Virus record (IMG/VR): IMGVR_UViG_2734482786_000007
Location: 1 to 31,320 of that record
From: a virus
Taxonomy: Duplodnaviria; Heunggongvirae; Uroviricota; Caudoviricetes
Length of the DNA stretch: 31,320 nt
Reading direction: 5' to 3' (one strand)
In this document: positions 6,061 through 24,419 of the stretch, one piece after another
Numbering within the stretch: position 1 is the stretch's first letter
How the letters are laid out: each line of letters opens with the position of its first letter
The notes under the pieces: model-generated
The model's input: only the letters and a program-made list of their open reading frames with translations
Told to the model about the DNA's origin: nothing
Database searches by the model: none
Made by a program: the position numbers and the translations under genes

Positions 6061-6094
6061 AGGGCAAGAGGGTGTTCTTGCCCTTTGTTTATTT
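6061..6094. terminator. Bidirectional intrinsic terminator between gene A and the convergent cargo gene
   Basis: Perfect 8-bp stem AGGGCAAG/CTTGCCCT (6061..6068 and 6077..6084) with an 8-nt loop, followed by TTGTTTATTT on the plus strand and preceded by an A/T run that supplies a U-tract for the minus-strand transcript. Confidence 0.6.
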
Positions 6095-8687
6095 AAGCGG
6101 CGATTTCAATGTTGCTTTTATATTTTAAGAGGGCGTTTTTGGGAACTGCTGGCCAGGCTGAGTATCTATAATAGTTCATATAATCTTTCTCTATCAGTGT
6201 TTTTAGCTGTTTGTTAGCTTGAACTTCATCACCAAGTAAAAAGAATGCACACATGGCCGTAGCCCCTTTTGAATTGTTATGTGCTAAAACTGAATTTATC
6301 TCATTCTTTTTAATGTCTTGCCCTTCTTTTTTCTTGGCAACTTCTCTATTGATTATTAAAACATCTTTTTCCCTGTAATCTTTAATTTTTTCAAGGTTTT
6401 CATTAGCGATTTTAATTGTTTCTTTATAGTTTCCTGCAAGAAGATTGGTATAAGATTTTCCTAAGATATAATCACTAAACCCGTAACCTTTTTCATAAGC
6501 TTCATCAAGAAGAACTATCGCTTTATCATAATCGCCGTTTAAAGATGCAATATCAGATTTTAATTTTAAAATGGTGATTTCTGATTTGTTTCTTGGCAGG
6601 CCATCAATAAACTCCTCTGCCAATTTGATGTTGTTTTTATCAATTAGTAATATGTCTACAATACTGTTTGTATGATTATTTTTCCACGGGCAGTTCATGG
6701 CTTCTTTGACTAATTCAATACCAGCCTTGATGTCCCTGTTGCAGCCTATCTCATATCGAGCTTTAAATATAATGAAAGGAGCAATTCTTGCAATGTCGCT
6801 CTCTTCTTCATATTTATCAATAAAGCCTTTCATCAGGTTGGGAGTGTTTTCATCGAAGTCTGTTTCAAATAAAGATAGATGCAGTTGTGTTAAATATTTT
6901 AATATGTTTCTTTTTTTATTTTTTGATGATGTTTTGTAAGCGTTGGATAATGTATCTATGCATAATAATGTATCTTCTTTCTTTTGCAATGCGCAGGTGA
7001 AATCAGTATATAACGACAAATATGTATCGTGAGTAGGGTTGACCTCTTTTATTTTGTCAAGCAGTTCTTGTATTAATTTATTACAATCTTTCTTATCATG
7101 GCTTGATTGATGTTTTGTCTTTATTGCGTCATATTTTATTCTCCATGCAATATTATCCAGATCACTGCTTTGGAGTAAGCTTTTATCAATTAAATCATGT
7201 ATTTCATCAAAGGTTATTAATTCTTCATCATTATTTTCTAGATGTAGAATAGCAATTCTGCTTAAATGATTCTTAAGATTTATGCTATATGGGAATTTTT
7301 CAAGCAATCCCTTAAGGTAATGTATTTTTGCCTTTAGATCTGTGAATATGTTTGCCCTTGAAAGGGCGTAATTTATATTAAATTCATCAAGAGCTATAAG
7401 ATTATCACTAATTTCTAATGCTGACTTTGTGTCTTTTTGTTCTTCTTTTATTTCAATTAGCCTACGCAGATATTTAGACTTTATATTGTCACTATCAGCG
7501 TTATTGATTAATTCATTCAGTTTTGACTCTGCGTTTAAATAATTTTTATTTCTAATGAGGTTGTCAATGTATAACAAATTCTTAAAATCTTCTTCGGGGA
7601 TCTTTTGATCGTCTAAATCACTTTGGGATAGCTCGTTTATTAATGACGATATGTCATGTGTTAGAGTGTGTTTTTTTAATTTTGAGAGATCAGATTTGAT
7701 AATGCCATTTTTAGATAAGTTGTACTCATCTGTTATAAAGTTTTGGATCATCATCTCTCTTTTTGTGGATTTTTGATTCCCTCCAAAAGAGAGTGCGCAG
7801 CCTAATTCTAGGGCTAGTTCTGCCATCAATTCATCAAAACCTTCTATTTCTACCCAATAAACTTTATCTTGACCTAGAAGCCTAATAAGTTCTGGTGGGA
7901 TGGAGTCATTTTTTCTAACGCACCAGTATACTCCATTTCTTAGATAATCGTCCTGTTTTAATAAATGTTTTAAAACATCCATGATAGAGCTGTCATTGCC
8001 AGCATAACCAACAAAAATAATCCCGTATTCTTTAGTGAATTCAGTTAGTTTTTCACGAGTGTTACCTTCTAATGACTCGGTTTCTTTTAAAGAGCTTTTT
8101 ATGCTATCAAATAAATAATCACCATGTAATTTTATTATTTTTGGCCTTGAAGAAGTAATTGAGACGCCTTTAATTGATGAATCATGTGCACATAATAATG
8201 GTCTGTCAGAAGAAAATTGATAAAATGCTTCATTTATTAAATCGTCAAAATTTGTTGTGAAGACAGTATCAAAAAACTTTGATTCAAATAGTTCAACGAG
8301 ATAAGCATATCCAATTGAAGGTAATTTTTTGTCTACTTGAAGCTCAACAAATCTTCTGCGTTGAGATGGAAGATCAAATTTCTTTTCAAAAAGAGATGAG
8401 TATTCATTGTTTGGGTCGTACCAGACTGGATGGTTTTTGGATAGCCATTTTTTAGCTTCTTCGGCATCGACATATTCTTGATTGGATAGTCTTGTGTATA
8501 TCTCTTCTCTCCATTTCGCTACTAACTCTTGACCAGTTTTTATTCCAGATGTAACGGATGCGCCAGCACCAAGAAAAAGTGAATAGTTAGGTGATGTACC
8601 TGATTTGATTTTTATATAATCAGCTAAATCTTTAACGGTTCTTTTTTTGGCAACCAGTTGTTCCTTGGTAGTATCACGATCAGACAT
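6093..8687 (-). CDS. SIR2-like (DHS-like NAD-binding) domain protein with a long C-terminal helical/TPR-like domain, 864 aa; candidate single-gene anti-phage defence protein
   Basis: N-terminal about 300 aa carry the SIR2_2-type signature: glycine-rich loop FLGAGAS (G40-S44), TTNFDD (N146), KLHGDY (H188), FVGYAGND. The C-terminal about 560 aa are Lys/Asn/Asp/Glu-rich helical repeats (e.g. GDYDKAIVLLDEAYEKG). Strongly AT-rich against the flanking phage genes; own GGAGGG Shine-Dalgarno; sits where P2 carries tin/old. Confidence 0.8.
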   Translation of the reverse strand: MSDRDTTKEQLVAKKRTVKDLADYIKIKSGTSPNYSLFLGAGASVTSGIKTGQELVAKWREEIYTRLSNQEYVDAEEAKKWLSKNHPVWYDPNNEYSSLFEKKFDLPSQRRRFVELQVDKKLPSIGYAYLVELFESKFFDTVFTTNFDDLINEAFYQFSSDRPLLCAHDSSIKGVSITSSRPKIIKLHGDYLFDSIKSSLKETESLEGNTREKLTEFTKEYGIIFVGYAGNDSSIMDVLKHLLKQDDYLRNGVYWCVRKNDSIPPELIRLLGQDKVYWVEIEGFDELMAELALELGCALSFGGNQKSTKREMMIQNFITDEYNLSKNGIIKSDLSKLKKHTLTHDISSLINELSQSDLDDQKIPEEDFKNLLYIDNLIRNKNYLNAESKLNELINNADSDNIKSKYLRRLIEIKEEQKDTKSALEISDNLIALDEFNINYALSRANIFTDLKAKIHYLKGLLEKFPYSINLKNHLSRIAILHLENNDEELITFDEIHDLIDKSLLQSSDLDNIAWRIKYDAIKTKHQSSHDKKDCNKLIQELLDKIKEVNPTHDTYLSLYTDFTCALQKKEDTLLCIDTLSNAYKTSSKNKKRNILKYLTQLHLSLFETDFDENTPNLMKGFIDKYEEESDIARIAPFIIFKARYEIGCNRDIKAGIELVKEAMNCPWKNNHTNSIVDILLIDKNNIKLAEEFIDGLPRNKSEITILKLKSDIASLNGDYDKAIVLLDEAYEKGYGFSDYILGKSYTNLLAGNYKETIKIANENLEKIKDYREKDVLIINREVAKKKEGQDIKKNEINSVLAHNNSKGATAMCAFFLLGDEVQANKQLKTLIEKDYMNYYRYSAWPAVPKNALLKYKSNIEIAA

Positions 8688-18415: not shown

Positions 18416-19051
18416 ATGAACACTCTCGCAAATATTCAGGAACTCGCGCGCGCACTGCGCAACATGATCCGCACCGGCATTATCGTCGAAACCGACCTTA
18501 ACGCCGGTCGCTGCCGTGTGCAGACCGGCGGCATGTGCACCGACTGGCTTCAGTGGCTGACCCATCGCGCCGGGCGTTCGCGCACATGGTGGGCACCTTC
18601 CGTGGGGGAACAGGTGCTGATTCTGGCCGTGGGCGGTGAACTCGACACGGCGTTCGTTCTGCCGGGGATTTATTCCGGTGATAACCCTCCGCCGTCTGCG
18701 TCGGCGGATGCCCTGCATATCCGTTTCCCTGACGGGGCGGTGATTGAGTATGAACCCGAAACCAGTGCACTCACGGTAAGCGGAATTAAAACGGCCAGCG
18801 TGACGGCTTCTGATTCTGTTACTGCCACGGTACCGGTGGTCACGGTGAAAGCGTCAACCCGTGTCACCCTGGACACACCGGAAGTGGTCTGCACTAACAA
18901 ACTGACTACCGGCACGCTGGAAGTGCAGAAGGGCGGGACGATGCGCGGCAACATTGAACACACCGGCGGTGAACTCTCATCAAACGGTAAGGTACTGCAT
19001 ACCCATAAACACCCCGGCGACAGCGGCGGCACAACAGGGGGACCTCTATGA
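18416..19051 (+). CDS. V: Baseplate central spike protein (P2 GpV-like), 211 aa
   Basis: Size identical to P2 V; first gene of the baseplate block V-W-J-I. Confidence 0.88.
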   Translation: MNTLANIQELARALRNMIRTGIIVETDLNAGRCRVQTGGMCTDWLQWLTHRAGRSRTWWAPSVGEQVLILAVGGELDTAFVLPGIYSGDNPPPSASADALHIRFPDGAVIEYEPETSALTVSGIKTASVTASDSVTATVPVVTVKASTRVTLDTPEVVCTNKLTTGTLEVQKGGTMRGNIEHTGGELSSNGKVLHTHKHPGDSGGTTGGPL

Positions 19052-19395
19052 CTGCGCGTTATCTCGGAATGAATCGCAGTGATGGCCTGACTGTCACTGA
19101 CCTTGAGCATATCAGCCAGAGTATCGGCGATATCCTGCGCACACCGGTCGGCTCACGGGTGATGCGTCGTGATTACGGCTCGTTGCTGGCGTCAATGATT
19201 GACCAGCCGCAGACCCCGGCGCTTGAGTTGCAGATTAAAGTCGCCTGTTACATGGCAGTGCTGAAATGGGAACCCCGCGTCACCCTGTCATCCGTCACCA
19301 CGGCGCGCAGTTTTGACGGGCGAATGACGGTCACGTTAACCGGCCAGCACAACGACACCGGCCAGCCACTTTCGTTAACCATCCCTGTGAGTTGA
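19048..19395 (+). CDS. W: Baseplate wedge protein W (gp25-like), 115 aa
   Basis: Size identical to P2 W; start overlaps the V stop. Confidence 0.88.
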   Translation: MTARYLGMNRSDGLTVTDLEHISQSIGDILRTPVGSRVMRRDYGSLLASMIDQPQTPALELQIKVACYMAVLKWEPRVTLSSVTTARSFDGRMTVTLTGQHNDTGQPLSLTIPVS

Positions 19396-19399
19396 AACC

Positions 19400-20308
19400 A
19401 TGCCGATTATCGACCTGAACCAGCTACCCGCACCGGATGTGGTCGAGGAGCTGGACTTTGAAACCATTCTTGCCGAACGCAAGGCGACACTGATTTCCCT
19501 TTACCCGGAAGACCAGCAGGAGGCGGTCGCCCGTACCCTGACGCTGGAATCCGAGCCTCTCGTCAAACTGCTGGAGGAAAATGCTTATCGTGAGCTTATC
19601 TGGCGTCAGCGTGTGAATGAGGCCGCACGGGCGGTAATGCTGGCCTGTGCCGCCGGTAATGACCTTGATGTGATTGGTGCCAATTACAACACCACGCGCC
19701 TGACTATCACTCCGGCAGATGATTCGACCATCCCGCCGACACCGGCAGTGATGGAGTCTGACACCGATTATCGTCTGCGTATTCAGCAGGCTTTTGAGGG
19801 CTTAAGCGTCGCCGGGTCAGTGGGAGCTTATCAGTATCATGGTCGCAGTGCCGACGGGCGTGTCGCCGATATTTCTGTCACCAGTCCGTCTCCTGCCTGC
19901 GTCACCATCTCTGTGCTGTCACGTGAAAATAACGGTGTCGCATCCGAAGACCTGCTGGCCGTGGTGCGTAACGCCCTGAATGGCGAGGACGTCAGACCGG
20001 TGGCCGACCGCGTGACCGTGCAGTCTGCCGCCATTGTTGAATACCAGATAAACGCCACGCTTTACCTTTACCCTGGTCCCGAAAGCGAACCCATCCGCGC
20101 GGCCGCCGTGAAAAAACTGGAAGCATACATCACGGCACAGCACCGGCTGGGGCGCGACATCCGTCTGTCTGCCATTTATGCCGCCTTGCATGTGGAAGGT
20201 GTGCAGCGTGTCGAACTGGCTGCACCGCTGGCCGACATCGTGCTCAACAATACGCAGGCGTCTTTCTGTACCGAATACCGCGTCGTGACCGGAGGCTCGG
20301 ATGAGTGA
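19400..20308 (+). CDS. J: Baseplate protein J, 302 aa
   Basis: Size identical to P2 J; synteny. Confidence 0.88.
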   Translation: MPIIDLNQLPAPDVVEELDFETILAERKATLISLYPEDQQEAVARTLTLESEPLVKLLEENAYRELIWRQRVNEAARAVMLACAAGNDLDVIGANYNTTRLTITPADDSTIPPTPAVMESDTDYRLRIQQAFEGLSVAGSVGAYQYHGRSADGRVADISVTSPSPACVTISVLSRENNGVASEDLLAVVRNALNGEDVRPVADRVTVQSAAIVEYQINATLYLYPGPESEPIRAAAVKKLEAYITAQHRLGRDIRLSAIYAALHVEGVQRVELAAPLADIVLNNTQASFCTEYRVVTGGSDE

Positions 20309-20831
20309 TTCGCGACTGCTGCCGACCGGCTCATCACCGCTTGAAGTTGCCGCCGCAAAAGCCTGTGCGGAAATTGAAAAAACACCGGTCAGTATTCGTG
20401 AGCTGTGGAACCCGGACACCTGCCCGGCAAATCTGCTGCCGTGGCTGGCGTGGGCGTTTTCGGTCGACAGATGGGATGAAAAGTGGCCGAAAGCGACAAA
20501 ACGCGCCGTTATCCGCGATGCCTATTTCATCCACTGTCATAAAGGCACTATCGGCGCAATCCGGCGTGTGGTGGAGCCGCTAGGCTATCTCATCAACGTG
20601 ACGGAGTGGTGGGAAAACAGTGACCCGCCCGGCACTTTCCGGCTTGATATTGGTGTACTGGAAAGCGGTATCACAGAGGCAATGTATCAGGAAATGGAAC
20701 GGCTGATTGCCGATGCCAAACCTGCAAGCCGTCACCTTATTGGTCTGAACATTACCCGGGACATTCCCGGCTACCTGTTCGCCGGTGGTGTGGCTTATGA
20801 CGGCGATGTAATTACGGTTTACCCCGGATAA
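20301..20831 (+). CDS. I: Baseplate protein I, 176 aa
   Basis: Size identical to P2 I; start overlaps the J stop. Confidence 0.88.
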   Translation: MSDSRLLPTGSSPLEVAAAKACAEIEKTPVSIRELWNPDTCPANLLPWLAWAFSVDRWDEKWPKATKRAVIRDAYFIHCHKGTIGAIRRVVEPLGYLINVTEWWENSDPPGTFRLDIGVLESGITEAMYQEMERLIADAKPASRHLIGLNITRDIPGYLFAGGVAYDGDVITVYPG

Positions 20832-20841
20832 GTGAGGAATA

Positions 20842-22971
20842 ATGAGCACAAAATTCAAAACCGTTATCACCACTGCCGGTGCAGCAAAGCTGGCAGCAGC
20901 AACCGCACCGGGAGGGCGGAAGGTCAACATTACCACGATGGCCGTCGGGGATGGCGGTGGTAAATTGCCTGTCCCGGATGCCGGACAGACCGGGCTTATC
21001 CATGAAGTCTGGCGACATGCGCTGAACAAAATCAGCCAGGACAAACGAAACAGTAATTATATTATCGCAGAGCTGGTTATTCCGCCGGAGGTGGGCGGTT
21101 TCTGGATGCGTGAGCTTGGCCTGTACGATGATGCGGGAACGTTAATTGCCGTGGCGAACATGGCCGAAAGCTATAAGCCAGCCCTTGCCGAAGGCTCAGG
21201 ACGTTCGCAGACCTGTCGCATGGTCATCATCGTCAGCAGTGTGACCTCAGTGGCGCTGACCATTGACACCACAACGGTGATGGCGACGCAGGATTACGTT
21301 GATGACAAAATTGCAGAACATGAACAGTCACGACGTCACCCGGACGCCTCGCTGACCGCAAAAGGTTTTACTCAGTTAAGCAGTGCGACCAACAGCACGT
21401 CTGAAACACTGGCTGCAACGCCGAAAGCGGTTAAGGCCGCATATGACCTGGCTAACGGGAAATATACCGCACAGGACGCTACCACAGCGCGAAAAGGTCT
21501 TGTCCAGCTCAGTAGTGCCACCAACAGCACGTCTGAAACGCTTGCCGCAACACCAAAAGCGGTAAAAGCAGCATATGACCTTGCTAACGGGAAATATACC
21601 GCACAGGACGCCACCACAGCGCGAAAAGGTCTTGTCCAGCTCAGTAGCGTCACCAACAGCGATTCTGAAACGCTTGCGGCAACGCCAAAGGCGGTAAAGG
21701 CCGCGTATGACCTTGCTAACGGGAAATATACTGCACAGGATGCCACCACAGCGCGAAAAGGTCTTGTCCAGCTCAGTAGCGCCACCAACAGTGATTCTGA
21801 AACGCTGGCTGCAACGCCAAAGGCGGTTAAGACAGCGTATGACCTTGCTAACGGGAAATACACTGCACAGGATGCCACCACAGCGCGAAAAGGTCTTGTC
21901 CAGCTCAGTAGCGCCGCCAACAGTGATTCTGAAACGCTGGCTGCAACACCAAAAGCGGTGAAGTCTGCCAATGACAATGCTGAAAAACGTCTTCAGAAAG
22001 ATAAGAACGGTGCGGATATTCCTGATAAAAGATTATTCCTGCGTAATATCGGCACAACAAATTCAACAACCATATCTTTTAGTGGTGGCGCTGGATGGTT
22101 CAGGCTGGCAACTGTAACCATGCCACAGGCCAGTTCCGTGGTTTACATAAGCCTGATTGGTGGTGCAGGGTATAACGTTGGCTCTCCGCAGCAAACAGGC
22201 ATCTCTGAGCTGGTTCTGCGTGCAGGAAATGGAAATCCAAAAGGTCTTACTGGTGCATTATGGCGACGGACCTCGGTTGGATTTACTAATTTTGCATGGG
22301 TGAATATATCTGGTGATACCTATGATATTTATGTAGAAATAGGTAATTACGCCACGGGTGTTAATATTCAGTGGGATTATACCAGTAACGCCAGCGTAAC
22401 GATTCATACATCACCAACTTATACAGCGAATAAACCAACAGGCCTGACAGATGGAACTGTATATATAATTTACAGTTCGCACATTAAACCAACTGCTGCT
22501 GATGTTGGGGCGTTGTCATTATCTGGAGGTCAATTGAATGGTGCACTGGGCATCGGAACATCCAGTGCTCTTGGCGGTAACTCGATTGTTTTGGGTGATA
22601 ATGACACGGGCTTTAAACAAAATGGCGACGGTAATCTGGATGTTTATGCTAATAACGTCCATGTTATGCGCTTTGTCTCCGGTAGCATTCAAAGTAATAA
22701 AACCATAAATATTACGGGGCGTGTTAACCCCTCGGATTACGGTAACTTTGATTCCCGCTATGTCCGGGATATCCGGCTTGGTGGTGCTGCCACATACAAA
22801 CCTGCGAACAATGGCATGACATGGACACATCAGGCACCGTCCGGGTGTGTATATTCCGGCATTATTGTTCAGGATACCGGCTCAAACTCTGCCGATAACA
22901 TTGGTGGCGTATATTACAGACCGGTTCAGAAATACATTAACGGGACATGGTATAACGTGGCACAGGTATAA
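20842..22971 (+). CDS. H: Tail fibre protein (P2 GpH-like), 709 aa, with internal tandem repeats and an AT-richer C-terminal domain
   Basis: Follows the baseplate genes and is followed by the tail fibre assembly gene G; conserved N-terminal part, repeat block in the middle, compositionally distinct C-terminal part. Confidence 0.88.
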   Translation: MSTKFKTVITTAGAAKLAAATAPGGRKVNITTMAVGDGGGKLPVPDAGQTGLIHEVWRHALNKISQDKRNSNYIIAELVIPPEVGGFWMRELGLYDDAGTLIAVANMAESYKPALAEGSGRSQTCRMVIIVSSVTSVALTIDTTTVMATQDYVDDKIAEHEQSRRHPDASLTAKGFTQLSSATNSTSETLAATPKAVKAAYDLANGKYTAQDATTARKGLVQLSSATNSTSETLAATPKAVKAAYDLANGKYTAQDATTARKGLVQLSSVTNSDSETLAATPKAVKAAYDLANGKYTAQDATTARKGLVQLSSATNSDSETLAATPKAVKTAYDLANGKYTAQDATTARKGLVQLSSAANSDSETLAATPKAVKSANDNAEKRLQKDKNGADIPDKRLFLRNIGTTNSTTISFSGGAGWFRLATVTMPQASSVVYISLIGGAGYNVGSPQQTGISELVLRAGNGNPKGLTGALWRRTSVGFTNFAWVNISGDTYDIYVEIGNYATGVNIQWDYTSNASVTIHTSPTYTANKPTGLTDGTVYIIYSSHIKPTAADVGALSLSGGQLNGALGIGTSSALGGNSIVLGDNDTGFKQNGDGNLDVYANNVHVMRFVSGSIQSNKTINITGRVNPSDYGNFDSRYVRDIRLGGAATYKPANNGMTWTHQAPSGCVYSGIIVQDTGSNSADNIGGVYYRPVQKYINGTWYNVAQV
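21358..21969 (+). repeat. About 4.6 tandem copies of a 132-bp (44-aa) in-frame repeat inside tail fibre gene H
   Basis: Unit LSSATNSTSETLAATPKAVKAAYDLANGKYTAQDATTARKGLVQ recurs with a period of exactly 132 nt (unit starts at 21376, 21508, 21640, 21772, 21904) with a few synonymous and conservative differences between copies. Confidence 0.9.
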
Positions 22972-22974
22972 TTT

Positions 22975-23502
22975 ATGCAGCATTTAAAAAATATTACGGC
23001 GGGTAATCCAAAAACGGTTGAACAATATCAATTGACAAAGGGTTTTGATGTTGTTTGGTTTTTTTCAGAAGATGGTAAGAACTGGTACGAAGAACAAAAG
23101 TATTTTACTGATGATACGATAAAAATAGCGTACGACAAAGATAATATTATCCGCTATGTGGAAAAGGATGTGACAGCTATCAGACCAGATGGATTAAGTG
23201 TTGTTGAAGTGCCGGATATTACTGCTAACCGACGGGCGGACATTTCAGGGAACTGGATGTTTAAGGACGGTACAGTGATTAAACGAATTTATACGGCAGA
23301 GGAATTGCAGCAGCAGGCAGAAAATCGGAAAGCCAGACTTCTAGCAGATGCTGAATCCGTTATTTTGCCGCTGGAGCGCGCTGTCAGGCTGAATATGGCA
23401 ACAGATGAGGAGCGTAGCCGACTGGAAGCATGGGAACGCTACAGTGTTCTGGTCAGCCGTGTGGATCCTGCAAATCCTGAATGGCCGGAAATGCCGCAAT
23501 AA
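22975..23502 (+). CDS. G: Tail fibre assembly chaperone (P2 GpG-like), 175 aa
   Basis: Size identical to P2 G; immediately downstream of H; C-terminal EWPEMP-type tail characteristic of tail fibre assembly proteins. Confidence 0.85.
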
Positions 23503-23891: not shown

Positions 23892-24419
23892 ATGGACTGG
23901 AAAGATCTTGCATCAACCGCTGTGTATACAGGTATGACTGATGAAAATGAAAGCATATGGGAACGTGTTGATGGGGTTGACGTTGCCTTCATAGGTGCCT
24001 TTCTTACTGCGCACTTGAGCCTTGAAAAGTATATTACTGATTATCTTGGATTAAGATATCCTTCGTTAGCTTGGGGTGATGCAAAACTCACATTTTCACA
24101 AAAAATAGCTTTAATACAACATGAGCCTGCAAAATCCCCTTATGATGAAATATATTTAAGAATAAAAGACTTTAACAGCATAAGAAATAAAATCAGTCAT
24201 CAATTGAATTATCAGATTACGGATAAAGAAAAAAGTAAGTTTGTGGACTTCTACATGAAGATTACTAAAGCCAGTAAAACTAAACCAAATATTGACATTG
24301 ATAACATGGCAGATTTGTTGGATTTTTTCGTATCGATGACGAAATCCTATTTTGCTAGTGCTATTTCTTATTGTCACTATAATAAAAAGCTTGCAGGTAA
24401 AAGTAATAAAATTGATTAA
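23892..24419 (+). CDS. Cargo protein at the Z/fun position, 175 aa, with an HEPN-like R-N-x3-H motif; candidate abortive-infection/defence gene
   Basis: AT-rich ORF with its own AAGGA Shine-Dalgarno, isolated by about 390 bp and 300 bp of non-coding DNA between G and FI; motif I-R98-N-K-I-S-H103 (nt 24183..24200) fits the Rx4-6H HEPN signature. Confidence 0.6.
   Translation: MDWKDLASTAVYTGMTDENESIWERVDGVDVAFIGAFLTAHLSLEKYITDYLGLRYPSLAWGDAKLTFSQKIALIQHEPAKSPYDEIYLRIKDFNSIRNKISHQLNYQITDKEKSKFVDFYMKITKASKTKPNIDIDNMADLLDFFVSMTKSYFASAISYCHYNKKLAGKSNKID

Follow-up and report, generated by a model that had tools for sequence, protein, structure and literature searches.

Tandem repeats in a tail fibre gene raise the question of whether they are a real and variable part of the fibre or a product of the way in which the sequence was assembled. 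We have addressed this for gene H in IMG/VR record IMGVR_UViG_2734482786_000007 (the entire stretch of 31,320 nucleotides is called 'the window' below), in which an earlier note, made from the letters alone, had recognised a series of 132-bp repeats prone to expansion and contraction. We consider it highly probable that this is a genuine in-frame array of the PF03406 repeat which forms the proximal shaft of a P2-type fibre and whose units are gained and lost by unequal recombination. Literature searches retrieved nothing specific on the copy number of this repeat in P2-like H genes. The present analysis adds the copy number in P2, a polymorphism of two, four or five motifs accompanied by recombination footprints, and a warning concerning contig breaks. 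Its importance is mainly practical (for annotation and assembly, and for phage engineering).

Gene H and its repeat array

H belongs to a P2-like (Peduovirus) prophage of Escherichia coli. It is preceded by the V, W, J and I ORFs (positions 18416-19051, 19048-19395, 19400-20308 and 20301-20831, respectively) and followed by G. This order and the ORF lengths equal those of P2, placing H at the position of P2 gpH, and in its late region the window shares 95-96% identity with sequenced Peduovirus genomes. NCBI already contains the exact protein (WP_047662267.1, 'tail fiber protein [Escherichia coli]'), on four contigs. The features of H and of its immediate surroundings are collected in Table 1.

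Table 1. Features of the gene H region (positions in the window; aa, residues of H)
Feature	Position	Strand	Description
Gene H	20842..22971	+	P2-type tail fibre, 709 aa; ORF; end coordinate includes the stop codon
H N-terminal domain	20842..21363	+	aa 1-174; PF12571 Phage_tail_fib, 2.7e-58, aa 1-151
Repeat unit 1	21364..21495	+	aa 175-218; 128/132 identical to P2 unit 1
Repeat unit 2	21496..21627	+	aa 219-262; 114/132 identical to unit 1; positional orthologue of unit 2 of other alleles
Repeat unit 3 (interior)	21628..21759	+	aa 263-306; 124/132 identical to unit 4; the one-unit allele difference maps here
Repeat unit 4 (interior)	21760..21891	+	aa 307-350
Partial unit 5	21892..21969	+	aa 351-376; homology of 26 aa, stopping just past the core SETLAATPKAVK; fifth PF03406 match
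Mu S-like linker	21970..22053	+	aa 377-404; NDNAEKRLQKDKNGADIPDKRLFLRNIG; aligns with Mu S residues ~145-174
Distal part of H	22054..22968	+	33% identical to P2 H, with large gaps besides conserved blocks
Gene G	22975..23502	+	Tail fibre assembly chaperone; PF02413 Caudo_TAP, 1.4e-34; position and length as P2 G
Antisense ORF	21372..21977	-	201 aa; considered a non-coding by-product of the repeat

The match of the N-terminal domain to PF12571, a tail-collar fibre domain, is complete (profile positions 1-150 of 150; 196.7 bits against a Pfam cut-off of 23). This domain would be the end by which the fibre is attached to the baseplate, because the N-terminus of the Mu fibre is described as docking on the baseplate wedge (PMC11915804). 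The distal part, which defines C-terminal cluster 2 among the alleles compared, is probably receptor-binding; in a PDB sequence search, the C-terminus of H matched a chain described as 'short tail fiber' (9cuy) as well as Mu S.

Tandem Repeats Finder identified a single array in the whole window, far beyond chance and without indels (21388-21963; period 132; 4.4 copies; 92% matches; score 893). With the register set in the protein, where each unit starts with G[FL][TV]QLSS, the array (21364-21969) consists of four complete units of 132 bp followed by a fifth of which 78 bp are present, all in frame with H. Tandem Repeats Finder, the ORF and the comparison of units thus agree, to within two codons, with the about 4.6 in-frame copies of a 44-aa unit originally placed at 21358-21969. 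The accompanying description of the copies as near-perfect is correct for the protein, since the full units share 40-42 of 44 residues (2-4 differences), but not for the DNA, in which only 108-124 of 132 bases are identical (82-94%; 8-24 bases differ) and the differences are mostly synonymous. Rapid slippage and an assembly artefact are therefore less likely here than the earlier note implied.

Since synonymous codon differences (5-14 for each pair of units) outnumber non-synonymous differences (2-4), every copy is under strong purifying selection as a protein sequence. Identity between neighbours climbs along the array, from 114/132 (units 1 and 2) through 119/132 (units 2 and 3) to 124/132 (units 3 and 4).

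The unit belongs to Pfam family PF03406 (Phage_fiber_2, 'phage tail fibre repeat'), which matches H five times (322.6 bits in total, E 1.5e-98; Pfam cut-off, 22). Each unit fits the 42-position profile end to end (the best stretch, aa 170-210, covers positions 1-41) and there is no essential difference from the family, the 44-aa form alone being present. In other E. coli fibre proteins the same motif alternates between a 44-aa spacing and a 56-aa spacing, the longer form carrying an HTHPW insertion, and there are at least eight motifs, so that five are unexceptional. The H array is an ordinary feature: a long-known, catalogued repeat family inside a known protein and not a new kind of element. 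The longer arrays of at least eight motifs were observed in proteins of the lambdoid side-tail-fibre type (P0121, P0123, P0126 and P0136), all of which are partial or short entries.

Comparison with the fibres of P2 and Mu

Whether the copy number differs from that of P2 had been left as a question. It does: two motifs (1.6 units) are present in P2 gpH (NP_046775, 669 aa) and five (4.6 units) in the window. Over aa 1-242, which take in the N-terminal domain, unit 1 and the motif-2 core, identity between the two proteins is 95%, and C-terminal blocks are also shared (for example, IVLGDNDTGFKQNGDG and the terminal KYINGTWYNVAQV). Beyond residue 242, P2 gpH continues with a middle module of its own (TVMDETNKKAPLNSP...), whereas H of the window continues with three more units, the Mu S-like linker and the distal domain. 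As this divergence starts exactly after the core of motif 2, SETLAATPKAVK, the difference between the two phages is a replacement of modules joined at the motif rather than a simple insertion.

In Mu S (gp49; PDB 5yvq and 9ki1), a single motif precedes the linker that is also found in the window (in Mu, KGLVQLTSATDSPSETLAATAKAVKIAMDNANARLAKDRNGADIPNKPLFIQNLG), and the C-terminal end is related to that of H; the PDB set also includes an S/S' chimera, 8ju3. The match of the whole H protein to 5yvq/9ki1 has an E value of 5.5e-30, and H aa 332-407 align with Mu S residues 99-174, so that the homology includes both motif and linker. Mu S differs in its single motif, in its N-terminus and in the invertible G segment that switches its distal part; the window has no such segment. 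We found no inverted repeats of at least 20 nt flanking the H-G region beyond chance-level 20-nt matches and, in the ORF list of the window, no fibre or chaperone ORFs on the opposite strand downstream of G. An invertible mechanism of the Mu/P1 type or a diversity-generating mechanism was rejected, given that there are neither inverted repeats nor a second distal cassette.

Copy number among related prophages

The comparison across related prophages proposed in the earlier note was made with the N-terminal domain as the only bait, so that the loci were chosen independently of the repeat. IMG/VR contributed 80 loci and species-representative genomes another 23. Motifs were counted with an HMM made from the units of the window, and complete alleles whose N-terminal domain was at least 96% identical were considered as close. 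Copy number does vary: 15 of the 78 complete close alleles have two motifs, 51 have four and 12 have five, in a sample consisting mostly of IMG/VR contigs from draft assemblies, in which some arrays could be collapsed. None has more than five, and the window is therefore at the top of the range among its close relatives. A P2-type distal module is found in every two-motif allele and the Mu S-like linker in every allele with four or five motifs. Counts of one to four motifs were obtained for other enterobacterial genera.

A full-length match to H is present in 65 complete E. coli genomes; among the matches listed, 36 of 40 span 2130 bp and the remaining four span 1998 bp, which is exactly one unit less. 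Both forms can be illustrated by alleles that are 95-96.5% identical to H in DNA. The allele of E. coli VG35A2 (709 aa) has five motifs, as in the window, together with the same N-terminus, linker and distal domain. That of E. coli GDAR2-2 (665 aa) also shares these three parts with the window but has only four motifs, one interior unit being missing.

Two types of unusual locus were encountered during the survey. In two IMG/VR loci (L068 and L103), H stops early, just past or inside the array (289 and 322 aa), and the tail is out of frame; these are either pseudogenes resulting from a repeat indel that is not a whole unit or assembly errors. P2-type H genes with 74-77% identity (an enterobacterial level) also occur in assemblies labelled Vagococcus sp. 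and Chryseobacterium sp. (L013 and L019 of the genome contigs). These assemblies are most likely contaminated or mislabelled and do not reflect true host jumps.

Gain and loss of units

Differences of a single 44-aa unit occur within three clusters defined by the distal domain (772 and 816 aa; 665 and 709 aa, with 657 and 701 aa; 749 and 793 aa), and the best breakpoint in every cluster lies at aa 248-300, in the interior of the array. Each unit of the window is 124-132/132 identical to the unit at the same position in VG35A2 but only 108-124/132 identical to its own neighbours. The four-motif alleles differ among themselves in that either the equivalent of window unit 3 or that of unit 4 is missing. 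To judge from such comparisons, the extra copy relative to these alleles is unit 3 or unit 4; unit 3 of GDAR2-2 is about equally near to both (125/132 and 126/132, respectively).

A particularly informative case is an IMG/VR allele (L030) that has five motifs although 10 of the 11 alleles of its background have four. Units 3 and 4, in the interior of its array, differ at one position (131/132 identical), which points to a recent duplication. The corresponding pair in the window is 124/132 identical (94%) and the duplication in the window is thus the older of the two. The extra interior unit of the window is an old duplication, common to many E. coli prophages and to other 709-aa alleles.

Exact matches in register between adjacent units extend over tracts of 54, 40 and 35 bp, lengths that suffice for homologous recombination or replication misalignment in E. 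coli. The one-unit alleles, the recent pair and the exact tracts together support unequal recombination and, with it, the initial suggestion that such an array expands and contracts by recombination. We propose that the copy number changes when neighbouring 132-bp units undergo unequal homologous recombination or are misaligned during replication, whole 44-aa units being added or removed and the reading frame left intact. The first, second and terminal partial units are anchored; it is interior units that are gained or lost. These events are probably rare rather than frequent, because the 6-18% DNA divergence between units should strongly depress recombination.

We also considered a contingency (phase-variable) locus. 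This was rejected since all copy-number variants (665/709, 657/701, 749/793 and 772/816 aa) are in frame, as expected from a unit of 132 bp, which corresponds to 44 codons.

Proposed role of the units in the fibre

The array would constitute the proximal shaft of a trimeric P2-type fibre, with the N-terminal domain on one side and the distal receptor-binding module on the other. Units may stack along the trimeric shaft, each lengthening the fibre, in which case copy number would alter the length of the shaft and of the fibre. If the density of residues is similar to that of the T4 long fibre, each unit would, by our own estimate, add roughly 2-3 nm.

Structure prediction contributed mainly to the N-terminal domain. 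An AF2 monomer model of H aa 1-420, obtained from an alignment of 38 sequences, has pLDDT values of 75-92 in the N-terminal domain and 30-48 in the array, and helices in the array were not taken as evidence. Foldseek searches of the PDB with this model gave no match to the array; the sole significant match, to a haloarchaeal virus tail protein, concerns the N-terminal domain. PDB sequence searches located the motif in Mu S chains only, with no structure demonstrably covering it. According to the Mu cryo-EM report, gp49 was modelled at its N-terminus only and the Mu structures include only the N- and C-terminal parts of the fibre (PMC11915804).

Host recognition may be influenced by fibre length or by use of the motif as a joint for recombination. 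Copy number could, for example, act as an adaptive 'length dial' in which the reach of the fibre is matched to the depth of the O-antigen or capsule by means of the interior units. Such a dial would explain both the recurrent one-unit changes in three receptor-binding backgrounds and the purifying selection on each unit, but we regard it as a rather unlikely extension of the shaft model. The natural alleles with two, four and five motifs provide a ready series for relating shaft length to adsorption.

The motif as a probable joint between modules

The point at which the fibres of the window and P2 diverge identifies the motif core, SETLAATPKAVK, as a joint of homology, and the core of the last motif could therefore double as a site for the exchange of distal modules. 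Taken to its limit, this would make the motif mainly a recombination adapter for swapping distal receptor-binding modules, with a copy number that is neutral. The parting of P2 and window H exactly after the core speaks for such a function, as do the occurrence of motif and linker together in Mu S and the arrays of eight or more motifs in unrelated fibre proteins of E. coli. Phage L-413C provides a further example: its gpH, in which the N-terminal 207 aa correspond to P2, has been described as a recombinant mosaic (PMC7460101). However, an adapter acting as DNA should conserve nucleotides, whereas the differences observed are concentrated at synonymous sites, and the strong selection on the protein sequence of each copy argues for a structural role of every unit. 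We consider it improbable that the motif is principally an adapter. The two roles are not mutually exclusive. In phage engineering, the core and the Mu-like linker would be useful as natural sites at which modules of P2-type fibres are joined.

Assembly of the array

The array of 4.6 copies might also result from misassembly of short reads, the true locus having fewer or more units. Repeats of this kind had been expected to cause difficulties in short-read data and this is borne out in the form of contig breaks. Many 'partial' tail fibre proteins in NCBI, some representing hundreds of sequences, end inside the array. In the cluster to which the H protein itself belongs, seven of nine partial members begin inside the array; for most of these, the start is at the TTARKGLVQLSS junction, the longest tract to be repeated exactly. 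Partial proteins also predominate in the protein collection, but this concerns only matches shorter than about 1.75 times the query length and is not an estimate of frequency.

Artefactual expansion should, however, yield identical copies. All five units are distinct (82-94% identical), and independent assemblies agree in their order and show positional orthology. The 709-aa protein is found unchanged on four contigs and, among the full-length matches listed for complete E. coli genomes, 36 of 40 have the same length of 2130 bp. The recurrence of ordered, diverged units in independent assemblies makes an artefact very unlikely. The genuine array is nevertheless a recurrent point of contig breakage in short-read E. 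coli assemblies, and caution is required with truncated 'partial tail fiber' calls as well as with any copy number derived from draft assemblies.

Open reading frames generated by the repeat

The antisense ORF listed in Table 1 exists exactly as first reported and was rightly called spurious: although no other antisense open frame within H comes near it in length, it starts with TTG, is confined to the array, has a length that merely scales with copy number and occupies a stop-free gap of 621 nt (compared with at most 215 nt elsewhere in H) that is open because a single unit has no stop in this frame and is repeated, while variants among alleles are synonymous in the sense frame and non-synonymous in the antisense frame in 15 cases against two of the reverse class, so that a real overlapping gene can be dismissed for practical purposes. 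The repeat gives rise to a second open frame of 84 aa (21707-21961, + strand; frame +2 relative to H), which is restricted to the array.

Variable genes elsewhere in the window

Two further ORFs occupy positions that are variable in P2-like phages. The first (175 aa; 23892-24419, + strand) lies between G and the sheath gene FI, in the P2 Z/fun cargo slot, and had no match in Pfam or PADLOC. In its relatives this slot contains fun(Z) (P2), an HNH endonuclease (VG35A2) or a 'lysogenic protein' (GDAR2-2). The second encodes a protein of 863 aa (6093-8687, - strand) and occupies the variable cargo slot upstream of portal gene Q, the place of old/tin in P2. This protein matches SIR2_2 (Pfam; 4.6e-15) and Aga_SIR2-PNTD1-PNTD2 (PADLOC; 2e-59), over aa 32-292 only, which leaves ~500 aa at the C-terminus without an assignment, and is probably the product of an anti-phage defence gene of the SIR2 type.
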